Shown here: positions 59,452 through 63,452 of the stretch, one piece after another
How the letters are laid out: the number at the start of each line of letters is the position of its first letter
Position numbering within the stretch: the stretch's first letter is position 1
Origin: Dictyostelium discoideum
Taxonomy: Eukaryota
Length of the DNA stretch: 64,000 nucleotides
Direction: 5' to 3'
Assembly: GCA_000004695.1 (NCBI GenBank)
Contig: CM000151.3
Span: 5,376,001 to 5,440,000, forward strand
Program-made: the position numbers and the translations under genes
The notes under the pieces: model-generated
Told to the model about the DNA's origin: nothing
The model's input: the letters and a program-made list of their open reading frames with translations, nothing else
The model's database searches: none

Positions 59452-62400
59452 TTAAAATTTCATTTTTGACAGAGGGACATCATCAATTGTAAATTCTTTT
59501 TCGTCTTCAACAACAGCCATTCTAATTGGAGAATTTATAGAATCAGTATTACTTTTTGGAGATATATTATCTTTTTCTTTTGGGTCAGGTTCATCATAAT
59601 CATCATGACCATTATCATCGTTGTCATCAAAATCGTCATCATCATTATCATTTTTTTGTTGTTGCTGTTGTTGCTGTTGTTGCTGTTGCTGTTGCTGTTG
59701 TTTCATTGATTCTTCTAATTGTAAAATTGTATTTGGTGATACCATTAATATTGGTTGGCACATTTCCACACTTTCGATATTTACATGAGAAAGAATCATT
59801 TTTTGTACATGATCTTTTTGATAATCCAAATGTGATGTTATTGCACTACTAACATCAACATCCTCAATTAATTCTAAATAAAATTTAGTTTCTAATAAAT
59901 AAAAAATAAAAAATAAAATAAAATTTTAAATTATTAAATATACTTTTTTTTTTTTTTTAAAAGAAAATAATTAAATAAAATATTACTTACTATTATCATA
60001 CAATTCTTTTAATTCTTGACCTTTTATATTCCTTTTATTAAAATTTGCAAATGATTGAATTTTTGGTGTTGGAATATTATTATTATTACTATTTTTTTCA
60101 TCATTAATTGATATATTATTATTATTATTATTATTATTATTATTATTATTATTATTATTATTATTATTATTATTATTATTATTATTATTATTATTATTAA
60201 AAATAAATGGAAATATTAAATTATTTTTAATATTTGATTGATTATTAATTGGTGAACAACCACAACATTGAAAAGAGTTACCATCTTCAGTTATATTTTT
60301 ATTTGATTCATAAACATATTGAAGTAGAATATCAGAGGGTGAATAACAATTTACAATACGACCTGAAACTATTTTTCTAATTTTTCTAAACTTATTTGGA
60401 TCATTTGGAATTGGAGCACCAATGAATAAAACATTTTCAATATGTCCATAGGCTTTCTTTTCAATGAGTTCCAAAAGACAATAGTACATTACTCTAGCAC
60501 CAGTTGAGATACCAACCAATGTAATTGGACGTTTACCAAACGATTTACATTGAATGATTTCATCAGCCAATAGTTTACCAGCTTTGATTGATCTATCTTT
60601 AACTTTACCCCATTTAGTACTAATGATTGAGGATGCCTCCAATAGACTTGCACTTGGTAAGATAGCATCATGCATCATTTTAGTGGTGAATCTTGAGAAT
60701 GTTGAGTTATCTTCAACCTTTGATTTGTAGTCATTTAAAGATTTATACAATGAATGTAATAGTTTAGTCTCCCATTTTAAGCTATAAACTTCACCTAAAC
60801 ATAATACACCAGAGAATAAATTTGATTCCCATCTTGTGAAATCCTCTTTTCCATCTTTTTCTTGAACCCAACCCAATGCACCAATAACTACATTCAAACC
60901 AACTGAACCTGGTACCTTTGAATAGGAGAATTCTTTTAAACCCGATGTTAATTTTGTCATTCTACCAGCTGAAATACTTGCACCGGCAGCACCAAATAAA
61001 ATTGAAGTTATTGCAGTACCACTAACACCAGTGGTTGCAATCGCTGATAATAAACTCACACCAATTGCACTATGTAATGCAACTGCACCAATCAATGGTG
61101 CAACAAGTCCACCTGTCAATGCTAATATACCACCACCTGCTATTGTTGCTAATGTTACCTTTAAAATTCTATGATTTGATCTAGTTCTTTCAAATACATT
61201 TAAAATATTACTTTTAATTGATTGATCATTCTTTTTATCATTATTATTATTATTATTATTATTATTATTATTATTATTATTATTATTATTATTATTATTA
61301 TTATTTTCAATTTCTTCTTTATTTTTATCATCACCATCTCCATTATTATGTTTATTATCTTTTTCATTTTGAATTTGTTTTTCATTTTGAATTTGACCAT
61401 AATTATTTTCAAGTAATAATAATTTTAAACCTAAAGTTGATGGTGACAATTTTAAAGCAAATCTTTTTAAAGTTGATCTAACAAATGCATCATAACCATT
61501 AGCTAATGCAAATGATGTTATAATTCTTAGAATTTCATCTGCATGATCAACAATATCTTGAATTAACAATTCATCACTATCATCAACTTCATATAAATTA
61601 TCATCATTGTCGTCATCATCACCACCACCACCACCATCTTTACTATTTATAAAATCCATTAATGGATTATTTAAAACTTCTTGTGATACTTTCATAATTG
61701 GTGATTCAATTGGTTGATTATTACTAGTTTGATTTGATTCAATAATTGGTATTTGTGAAAAATTTTCACCATCATCATTATTATTTTCACCAACAATAAC
61801 ATTATTTATAAAATTTTCATTATTTTCAATACCAATACTTTTATTTAAAATTGATGATGAGAATTGTAATTTTTGTTGTTCTTGTTCTTCTTGATAAAAT
61901 GATGATTTAAAATATTTATCTTTAAAATTTGATTCTAAATAATCTGATGCCATTTTTAATGATATAAAATAATAACCTTCTTCTGATACCATAAAATCAC
62001 TAGCTCTAAATAATTCAATAAATCTTTTTTTTTTTTTTTTTTTTTTTTTTTTTTTAAAAAGTTAATAAATTAATATATTAAATAACAATAATAATATGAA
62101 ATTATAAAGAAAACTTACTTTAAATTTGAATATAAATAAGATGGATTAGTTTGAACAGTTAAATAAATTAAATAACCAATGAATTCATCAGCACCAAAAG
62201 TACCAAATTTATTTAAACCTTTTGAAATATGTCTACATGATCTAAGGATACAAACGATTTTATCACGAGGTGCTTCATAAAGATTAATGAGTGATAAATC
62301 AGCGATTGCAGCTTCCCAATTAACAGATGATAATTTAGTTGGATCAATATCTGAATAATCATTGATTGGTAATTGTTTAACATATTGAATTATACTCTTT

Positions 62401-63452
62401 AATTGTTTATCTTTTGATTTATTAATTGGGAAAATTTGGCCATAAATTTGAATTAATATTAATGATTCAATTGCTTCACCCATTGCAACTGGATCATCTT
62501 TTGGAAAAAGGTATACTAATTTTTGTAAAAATGTTGATATAATATCTTGATAATTATTACCTTTTTCTTCAATATATTTATCTAATTTAAAATCATTTTC
62601 ATTATTATTATTATCATTATTATTATTATTATTATTATTATTATTATTATTATTATTATTATTATTATTATTATTATTATTATTATTATTATTATTATTA
62701 TTATTATTATTATTATTATTATTTAAAGAAGAGGAAGATTCATCTCCTTCTCCTTTTTCTAATTTATCTATAAATAATTTTAAATCTTTATTAAATGTTT
62801 CACAATATGTTTGAATATCTTTTAATATAGATTCACTCTCTTTTGAAAAATTTGATAATTGTGTTATAAATTGTTTATTATATAATTCAAAATCATATGT
62901 TAAATTTAAAATTGATTTATTAAAACTTTTTTGTTGTGGTTCTTGTTTTTGTTTATATGATGATGATGATGATGATGTTGTTGTTGATGATAATTGTAAA
63001 TCATCTGTTATTTTATTTGTAGAGTTTTTATTTTTTAATTTTAATAATTGTTGTTCTTTTAATAATTTTTGTTGTTGTCTTTGATATAAATAATTTGATT
63101 GAGGATGAGTTTCATATAGTTGATTAATTTGATAATTTGATAGATGATAATAATCAAATGTTGATTTTAAAAATGAATTAACTTCTTTTAATTTAATATC
63201 TTTCTCTGATATACATGAAAATAATAAAGATACAACTAAAAAACCAACATAACTCCTATTAATATCTCTAACTCCTGAACTATTTAATCCTGCATTTGTT
63301 GTCTTTTTATTTACTAATTCTGTTGTCGTTGTTGTTGTTGTTGTTGTTTCTAATGATTTAGTGTTAGACTCATCAATACTGCCTGTGAATGTGTTATTTG
63401 GTGTATTATTCTTTGAGAGCCTATTTGATAATTTTTTTATCGAATTTATCAT
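59452..63452 (-). CDS. VPS9-domain protein fused to a TMCO4/DUF726 alpha/beta-hydrolase domain. Minus-strand exons 62119..63452, 59991..62005, 59452..59891.
   Basis: Supplied ORFs 62115..63452 and 59983..61992 are joined by a 113-bp intron with GTAAGT at 62118 and an AG ending at 62006. Exon 1 ends in phase 2 and exon 2 starts in phase 2, in frame with the downstream ATG. The join reconstitutes one VPS9 domain: ...DKIVCILRSCRHISKGLNKFGTFGADEFIGYLIYLTVQTNPSYLYSNL-K-ASDFMVSEEGYYFISLKMASDYLESN (compare Rabex-5/RIN ...GADDFLPVLIYVvlkANPP.L.SNLqYI......GEDGYYFTNLcsAvaFIE). Exon 2 carries the DUF726/TMCO4 core RPITLVGISTGARVMYYCLLELIEKKAYGHIENVLFIGAPIP...RKIVSGRIVNCYSPSDILLQYVYE (human TMCO4 RPVTLVGFSLGARVIYFCLQEM...IIEDVILLGAPVEGE...RKVVSGRIINGYCRGDWLLSFVYR), plus a Gly/Ala-rich hydrophobic segment. 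A second intron, with GTAAGT at 59990 and an AG ending at 59892, adds a 145-aa acidic/Q-rich tail. Confidence 0.65.

Follow-up and report, generated by a model that had tools for sequence, protein, structure and literature searches.

Rabex-5, yeast Vps9, and Arabidopsis VPS9a combine a helical bundle in tandem with a VPS9 domain that displays an Asp finger of the form GAD(D/E)F and, in helix V6, a GYYF motif. They carry accessory domains of their own (ubiquitin-binding zinc finger, CUE) and have neither a hydrolase nor a membrane segment. Yeast Mil1 (Yfl034w) and human TMCO4 have a DUF726 domain with a GxSxG Ser-Asp-His triad, a Gly-rich hydrophobic segment that precedes this domain, and a YDAR-type helical segment, and they lack VPS9. 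Mil1 is a predicted lipase whose N-terminal region binds the AP-1 subunit Apm2; AP-1R sorting depends in part on the Ser-Asp-His triad of Mil1 (PMC4751606). TMCO4 is recruited to the endoplasmic reticulum by active RAB18 in a manner dependent on the RAB3GAP exchange factor (PMC10641524). Here, we describe a Dictyostelium discoideum locus whose predicted product shares with the first group the bundle-plus-VPS9 tandem, the Asp finger, and GYYF, and with the second the DUF726 domain, its triad, and the two segments mentioned. It lies at 63452..59452 on the minus strand of a stretch of 64,000 nucleotides (nt) that we analyzed as a whole (hereafter the window; GenBank assembly GCA_000004695.1, contig CM000151.3, positions 5,376,001 to 5,440,000 of the forward strand). 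On sequence grounds, we assign a probability of about 0.85 to the reading that this locus is a single three-exon gene with a product of 1268 amino acids (aa). Whereas Mil1 and TMCO4 bind their partner in trans, this protein would have a built-in Rab-activating module.

The region is extremely A+T-rich with long AAT (poly-Asn) tracts, as is typical for the Dictyostelium genome. A mechanical list of open reading frames (ORFs) gives three on the minus strand, of 445 aa (63452..62115), 669 aa (61992..59983), and 125 aa (59829..59452), the first two of which had been picked out by a first-pass annotation of this DNA. When the segments 63452-62119, 62023-59991, and 59891-59452 are joined, they form an open frame of 1268 codons (1262 if exon 2 starts at 62005). 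Exon 1 (62119..63452) opens with the ATG at 63452-63450 and extends to the second base of codon 445; its residues 1-444 comprise a conserved N-terminal region (~64-123), a helical region (184-236), a poly-Asn tract, a pre-VPS9 helical bundle (~287-378), and positions 1-70 of the VPS9 profile. Its N terminus, MINSIKKLSNRLS, matches MINSLKKLSNRLS in D. purpureum. Intron 1 (62024..62118) has 95 nt, is in phase 2, reads GTAAGT...(A)31G, and cuts the VPS9 domain within helix V5, in the codon of Lys445. Exon 2 (59991..62023) runs from the third base of codon 445 through residue 1122 to the first base of codon 1123 and supplies the remainder of VPS9 (FIELFRASDFMVSEEGYYFISLKMASDYLE) together with a low-complexity linker, a conserved helical segment (602-652), the Gly-rich hydrophobic segment, and the DUF726 core. 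It is followed by intron 2 (59892..59990; 99 nt, phase 1, GTAAGT...TTATTAG) and by exon 3 (59452..59891), which begins with the last two bases of codon 1123, ends with residue 1268 and the stop at 59454-59452, and encodes the last hydrolase strand, the catalytic His, and a poly-Gln/acidic tail. The two introns have a G+C content of 7.4 and 5.1%, respectively, compared with 21-30% in the exons and 10-11% in the flanking intergenic DNA.

Both long ORFs end at splice donors. The 445-aa ORF closes with ...TCA AAT TTA AAG TAA GT, its stop being part of the GTAAGT at 62118-62113, the donor that the first-pass annotation had pointed out near the end of this ORF, and the 669-aa ORF likewise ends at a GTAAGT (59990-59985), after which in-phase AGs end at 59892 and 59874. 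The join between 59991 and 59891, which had also been proposed, is borne out since the sequence on its two sides, KFYLELIEDVDVSS, matches KYYLDLIEDVDVSS in D. purpureum, where intron 2 is missing and the ORF is continuous. P. violaceum has an intron at a similar place. The donor consensus AA|GTAAGT brings a TAA stop with it, and in such an A+T-rich genome a split gene therefore has the appearance of separate ORFs.

What holds the two long ORFs together is the VPS9 domain (Pfam PF02204), which corresponds to residues 379-476 (61930..62318 on the minus strand) and is assembled from 62318-62119 and 62023-61930, with intron 1 in between. In the full spliced protein, this domain scores 94.7 bits (cut-off 27), covers positions 1-101 of the 104 in the profile, and is followed by DUF726. 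In contrast, the 445-aa ORF alone scores 56 bits and stops at position 70; it does not hold a whole VPS9 domain, which would have counted against the fusion. Splicing therefore rebuilds the second half of the VPS9 fold, as had been claimed. The last 31 of these profile positions (what remains of helix V5 plus the whole of V6, including GYYF) share their exon and reading frame with DUF726; they begin upstream of the first ATG of the 669-aa ORF and run across it, and the Met in question is a Leu in two orthologues.

Related proteins in other dictyostelids have the same architecture. Judging from shared sequence and position, the window gene is the positional orthologue of D. purpureum DICPUDRAFT_153177 (a "VPS9 domain-containing protein" of 1178 aa in UniProt), with which it has in common the domain order (61% identity), the codon cut by intron 1, the N and C termini (both proteins start with MINS.KKLSNRLS and end with ...KF), and a SERF-like downstream neighbor. 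P. violaceum CYY_009166 (997 aa, 46% identity) is another orthologue with the same domain order and intron 1 codon. These identities are those of the best BLASTP local alignment; in conserved blocks, they are 51-73%. Apart from the absence of intron 2 in D. purpureum, both proteins differ from the window protein in the length of their low-complexity inserts. By mapping them onto their locus DNA (L001 and L002, respectively), we found that each has a phase 2 intron precisely within the Lys codon of SNLK|F, after which the coding sequence resumes with ag|ATTTAT.

The orthologues also bear on where intron 1 ends. Two AGs are in phase with its donor, one ending at 62024 and the other, 18 nt further downstream, at 62006. 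The first-pass annotation had chosen the latter, which gives a 113-bp intron and a 1262-aa product. That AG exists and is in phase, but orthologues and Pfam favor the one at 62024, which lengthens the product to 1268 aa. The disputed 18 nt translate into FIELFR. All four full-length orthologue models have this stretch, unchanged in D. purpureum and as FIDLFR and YIELFR in two others; a Synstelium model (P0004) is the only orthologue model without an equivalent. Across the junction, D. purpureum reads ...YSNLKFIELFRAGDLMVSEEGYYF and P. violaceum ...YSNVKFIDLFRSSNFMASEGAYYF. The VPS9 score of a 200-residue segment is 98.9 bits with the AG at 62024 vs. 74.4 bits with the AG at 62006, and the window agrees with D. 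purpureum in all of the 13 nt past the 62024 splice site, despite intron sequences that do not align from one species to another. Since FIELFR is conserved, the VPS9 score is higher with it, and the intron codon is shared, we placed the acceptor at 62024. In both introns, a second in-frame AG is found exactly 18 nt 3' of the acceptor supported by orthologues (62006-62024 and 59874-59892), and the 18-nt stretches after the two acceptors end in TTATTTAG. These paired AGs could be due to chance in A+T-rich coding sequence or could provide six-codon alternative isoforms.

The annotation of a 99%-identical NCBI assembly agrees with the single-gene reading. Contig JBTAPE010000033.1 of assembly GCA_054883475.1 is 99.0% identical to the window over 21.4 kb, the first 600 nt of the matching piece being identical to window positions 60030-59431, and a gene called there has a 1268-residue product that ends exactly at 59452 and extends beyond the compared 21.4 kb. 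Its last 579 nt were compared, and the agreement with our model concerns the product length and the stop. A DUF726-only model would yield 813 residues (445 + 10 + 813 = 1268). Several observations weigh against this support for a single gene. The equal length in GCA_054883475.1 could, in principle, stem from a 1262-aa model combined with differences in repeat length. A collection of 15 billion proteins contained no match to the exact 1268-aa sequence, nor to the alternative models or either single ORF. Finally, the Logan contigs matching the window (runs SRR26869256/66/68 and SRR28564542) appear genomic and gave no transcript evidence. One of them, L003, retains the GTAAGT intron start, which points to a genomic origin of the SRR26869256 series; the gene covered by the remaining contigs has no intron, and for these DNA and RNA are indistinguishable.

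Could the locus hold two adjacent genes, a 445-aa truncated VPS9 protein ending with the TAA at 62115 and a DUF726 protein starting from the ATG at 61992, with the fused models being prediction artefacts? Each ORF does stand alone in the mechanical list, the second starts with an ATG, and there are faulty public models in this family (Acytostelium P0007, Cavenderia P0008, and Synstelium P0013 with its added Rpc4 domain). Nevertheless, we consider this extremely improbable, with exon 1 alone supplying just 70 of the 104 VPS9 positions, the 10 codons 5' of the ATG encoding the conserved VPS9 sequence FIELFRASDF, and the 122-nt gap between the ORFs having an intron-like composition. Moreover, in three nondictyostelid amoebae, both domains are found in single ORFs from TRINITY and other transcriptomes, and such transcript-derived ORFs cannot arise by merging neighboring gene predictions. 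The proposal of the first-pass annotation that this is one fusion gene and not two is thus upheld by the continuity of VPS9 into the DUF726 exon, the orthologues, the transcriptome ORFs, and the existing 1268-aa annotation. Within that gene, use of the AG at 62006, whether always or in an alternative isoform, would give a 1262-aa product without FIELFR. This AG is in frame and preceded by a T-rich run (ttatttAG), the one at 62024 follows a poly-A run instead of a pyrimidine tract, and intron 2 is arranged alike, with its second in-frame AG at 59874. We nonetheless find its use very unlikely, as it would delete part of helix V5 and a sequence that the full-length orthologue models keep, at a cost of 24.5 bits in the VPS9 score, and would leave unaccounted for both the 13 nt shared with D. 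purpureum and the 1268 residues annotated in the 99%-identical assembly.

A profile made from residues 287-488 and their homologues matches the Arabidopsis VPS9a/ARA7 complex 2efc (E value of 1e-57) and Rabex-5 (1txu/2ot3; E ~1e-35), over ~175-200 residues that comprise the helical bundle and VPS9. The mutant entry 2efh (D185N) aligns its N to D422 of the window protein (62189-62187), which marks the column of the Asp finger; the equivalent of VPS9a D185 in Rabex-5 is D313. GYYF corresponds to residues 461-464 and is encoded by exon 2. The window protein and the majority of orthologues retain the Asp finger and the aromatic pair of GYYF. By contrast, two neighboring residues of Rabex-5, Vps9, and VPS9a have changed. 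The Pro that follows the finger there is Gly in the window protein (after GADEF), the Thr that follows GYYF is Ile, and both are replaced across the dictyostelid clade. In the work of Delprato and colleagues from 2004, this Pro and this Thr are reportedly among four residues critical in Rabex-5. Furthermore, one orthologue (Synstelium) has a Glu at the finger position. Exchange activity of the VPS9 domain is therefore plausible but not assured.

The DUF726 domain (Pfam PF05277) corresponds to residues 728-1044 (60226..61176 on the minus strand) and scores 233.7 bits against a cut-off of 22.6. The G-x-S-x-G motif that had been noticed in this ORF is GISTG at residues 949-953 (60513-60499). Together with Ser951 (60507-60505) and Asp1009 (60333-60331), His1143 (59830..59832, minus strand, in TSHLDY) would complete a predicted Ser-Asp-His triad. 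In a 75-row alignment of the DUF726 family, the columns of these residues show Ser in 66, Asp in 71, and His in 61 members, and the triad is kept in the orthologues whose models extend far enough. Since His1143 is encoded by exon 3, all three exons are required for a complete enzyme. A Gly/Ala-rich hydrophobic segment (residues ~733-800; 60958..61161, minus strand) is the only stretch above the Kyte-Doolittle transmembrane threshold, with a maximum of 2.09 at 743-766, and is presumed to be the membrane anchor or hairpin of the DUF726 module. The Apm2-binding motifs of Mil1, WQEMP and FNIY, were not found in the window protein; these motifs are yeast-specific, also missing in TMCO4 (PMC4751606), and do not define the family.

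For a structural view, we used an AlphaFold model of the P. violaceum orthologue (P0002) as a stand-in for the window protein. Its mean predicted local distance difference test score (pLDDT) is 74.7 and its predicted template modeling score (pTM) 0.68. Its folded domains all reach a pLDDT close to or above 90, the DUF726 domain, a putative alpha/beta-hydrolase, being above 90; the equivalent of the Gly-rich segment is below 50. The position of intron 1 maps to the interior of helix V5 in this model, Ser770 occupies the nucleophile-elbow position, flanked by a strand and a helix, and the His equivalent is at the N terminus of a short helix and a few residues past the strand formed by 936-939. 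Foldseek searches with the model matched VPS9a and Rabex-5, with template modeling (TM) scores up to 0.73 (2ot3) and E ~1e-6. For the hydrolase part, they returned esterases, phospholipase A1, monoacylglycerol lipase, and thioesterases with probabilities of 0.9-0.99. The E values of these hydrolase matches, 0.05-0.2, are weak, which counts against the assignment and which we ascribe to the multidomain nature of the query model. No solved DUF726 structure was found.

These features lead us to think that the product is likely a membrane-associated serine hydrolase coupled to a Rab5-family guanine nucleotide exchange factor (GEF), a view that has to be weighed against two others, one for each domain. 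The VPS9 module might be a pseudo-GEF, that is, a Rab-binding or scaffolding part that merely localizes or regulates the hydrolase. The loss of the Pro and Thr throughout the dictyostelid clade fits such a role, as does the Glu at the finger position in one orthologue (Synstelium) and one paralogue (D. firmibasis), and GEF activity has been demonstrated for no Dictyostelium VPS9 protein (PMC8923023). We regard this as possible, although on balance somewhat unlikely, considering that the Asp finger and GYYF aromatics are retained in the window protein and most orthologues and that, in the orthologue model, the bundle-plus-VPS9 tandem (pLDDT ~90) is predicted to superpose on Rabex-5 bound to Rab21 (2ot3, TM 0.73). 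Conversely, the DUF726 part might be a nonenzymatic membrane adaptor, which would make the gene in effect that of a membrane-anchored GEF. This would be in line with the finding that a yeast Mil1 S>A mutant still brings Apm2 to membranes (PMC4751606) and with the fact that a substrate is known for no DUF726 protein. It sits less well with the conservation of Ser, Asp, and His in 66, 71, and 61 of the 75 family members as well as in the window protein, and with the partial requirement of Mil1 triad residues for Apm2-dependent sorting (PMC4751606), and we judge it clearly unlikely.

If the product is indeed such a hydrolase coupled to a GEF, a mechanism can be proposed. As in the Mil1/TMCO4 family, the hydrophobic segment and the hydrolase would anchor the protein on an endomembrane, where the serine hydrolase would act on a lipid or acyl ester. 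The tethered VPS9 domain would load GTP onto a Rab5-family GTPase (Rab5/Rab21 type), so that Rab activation and lipid remodeling would share one membrane patch. In this scheme, the VPS9 module would take the partner-binding role that is played by the variable N terminus in other DUF726 proteins, the analogues being Apm2/AP-1 binding in yeast Mil1, for which the statement of the first-pass annotation that Mil1 recruits AP-1 agrees with the literature (PMC4751606), and GTP-RAB18-dependent recruitment in human TMCO4.

This architecture is not confined to the window. Homology searches, one of them with the low-complexity regions masked out, returned proteins with PF02204 and PF05277 in D. purpureum and P. 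violaceum, in two dictyostelids of EukProt, and in a transcript ORF of Physarum polycephalum. A profile search of 1.84 billion representative proteins gave 6945 matches; 13 of the best 150 carry both domains, as judged using a purpose-built profile of the helical bundle plus VPS9, and further lineages may have the fusion as well. All 12 dual-domain proteins for which there are Pfam scans pass the Pfam cut-offs, and P0011, whose 3598-aa model probably results from the merging of several genes, is matched by the purpose-built profile only. Dual-domain proteins are found in at least seven dictyostelids (D. purpureum, P. violaceum, Acytostelium subglobosum, Cavenderia fasciculata, Synstelium polycarpum, D. 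firmibasis, and Heterostelium album). Beyond Dictyostelia, VPS9 and DUF726 are present in one transcriptome ORF each of Physarum polycephalum (transcript_01387.p1), Clastostelium recurvatum (TRINITY_DN2688), and the archamoeba Mastigella eilhardi (TRINITY_DN4580). Identity of these three to the window protein is 23-33%, they keep a canonical (A/D)D(F/L)LP motif, and the Physarum protein has large inserts inside DUF726.

In a neighbor-joining tree of DUF726 domains, which is a rough distance tree with no bootstrap support, all fusion proteins, Physarum, Clastostelium, and Mastigella included, group in a single clade that is separate from ~60 DUF726-only proteins; two short fragments fall in with this clade. 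Since the fusion proteins form a single DUF726 clade, the tree suggests that one fusion may have occurred before the split of Dictyostelia, Myxogastria, Protosporangiida, and Archamoebae, early in the Evosea branch of Amoebozoa, followed by a duplication in Dictyostelia. A second, more divergent dictyostelid paralogue is represented by P0010 (D. firmibasis KAK5578247.1), P0012 (Heterostelium album EFA79901.1), and P0013 (Synstelium), with VPS9 scores of 45-55 bits and a finger motif that reads GEDYLLP or GEELLLP. A copy of it is presumably present elsewhere in the D. discoideum genome. Some models in the family show anomalies. In that of Acytostelium (P0007), VPS9 breaks off at profile position 74, which is the site of the conserved intron; in that of Cavenderia (P0008, DFA_03421), DUF726 is truncated at 123 of 343 positions; and Synstelium P0013 has an RNA-polymerase-III Rpc4 domain appended. 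Several public models of the fusion family, those of Acytostelium and Cavenderia, are broken at or near intron 1.

The architecture had been thought not to have been described. This holds for the literature, insofar as we found no paper discussing a VPS9-DUF726 fusion in the full-text literature on DUF726, TMCO4, VPS9, and Mil1/Apm2, and the accessible portions of the text and supplements of two VPS9 surveys that include Dictyostelium (PMC6032885, PMC8923023) do not mention DUF726. It does not hold for databases, where the architecture is already known from NCBI, UniProt, and EukProt entries for ~10 amoebozoan species and from the annotation of the 99%-identical assembly. According to one of these surveys, RgfA is the only one studied among the putative Dictyostelium RabGEFs. 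In other words, the gene structure is ordinary and correctly inferable, whereas the fusion is functionally uncharacterized. Its interest lies in the nature of DUF726 proteins, which are orphan hydrolases whose only known connections are with trafficking machinery (Mil1 with AP-1R, TMCO4 with GTP-RAB18). Since the fusion has probably been kept from before the split of Dictyostelia, Myxogastria, and Archamoebae, and in two paralogues, it can be argued that hydrolase and Rab activation belong to one pathway. Taken further, the fusion might be a true "Rosetta stone," indicating that DUF726/TMCO4/Mil1 hydrolases are generally enzymes coupled to Rab activation. Amoebae would then hard-wire this coupling, a membrane-anchored lipase activating a Rab5-family GTPase on the very membrane being remodeled, as a module made of a GEF and a lipid modifier. 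We offer this reading tentatively, as it seems rather doubtful to us. If correct, it would give a testable handle on what human TMCO4 and yeast Mil1 act on and in which pathway. Dictyostelium is a tractable organism for testing the link between hydrolase and Rab.

The window contains other features. A second VPS9 protein, which the first-pass annotation had placed at 9395..14751 on the plus strand, was found there as well. The locus consists of a 1250-aa ORF (9395-13147) with no Pfam match, a 110-nt gap, and a 497-aa ORF (13258-14751), the last 73 residues of which match positions 35-102 of the VPS9 profile with 48.8 bits. The two ORFs probably belong to a single gene whose intron lies at ~13148-13257. 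With its VPS9 domain at the C terminus and no DUF726, it is unrelated to the fusion. Approximately 370 nt downstream of the fusion gene, on the same strand, there is a small two-exon SERF/4F5-like gene (58710..59078, minus strand) with a zf-met2 domain (MPSGNGAKAQQKRERNLKRNEG...), whose product is 85% identical to that of the gene at the same position in D. purpureum, a case of synteny. Further along the minus strand, a 280-aa ORF for a secreted-looking protein (55538..56380) ends in AAG|TAAGT, its stop being made by a GTAAGT donor. A 344-aa product is annotated at this locus in the 99%-identical assembly, and the split ORF is thus the same trap as in the fusion gene. ARAGORN identified two transfer RNA genes on the minus strand, tRNA-Lys(CTT) at 24771-24845 and tRNA-Met(CAT) at 40777-40851. 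Lastly, a single-exon gene (48566..49954, minus strand) encodes a 462-aa S-adenosylmethionine methyltransferase with domains of the CMAS/Methyltransf_11 type and a faint COXG-like match at its N terminus; this gene recurs without change in GCA_054883475.1 as well as in several Logan assemblies and provides an anchor to the annotated record.

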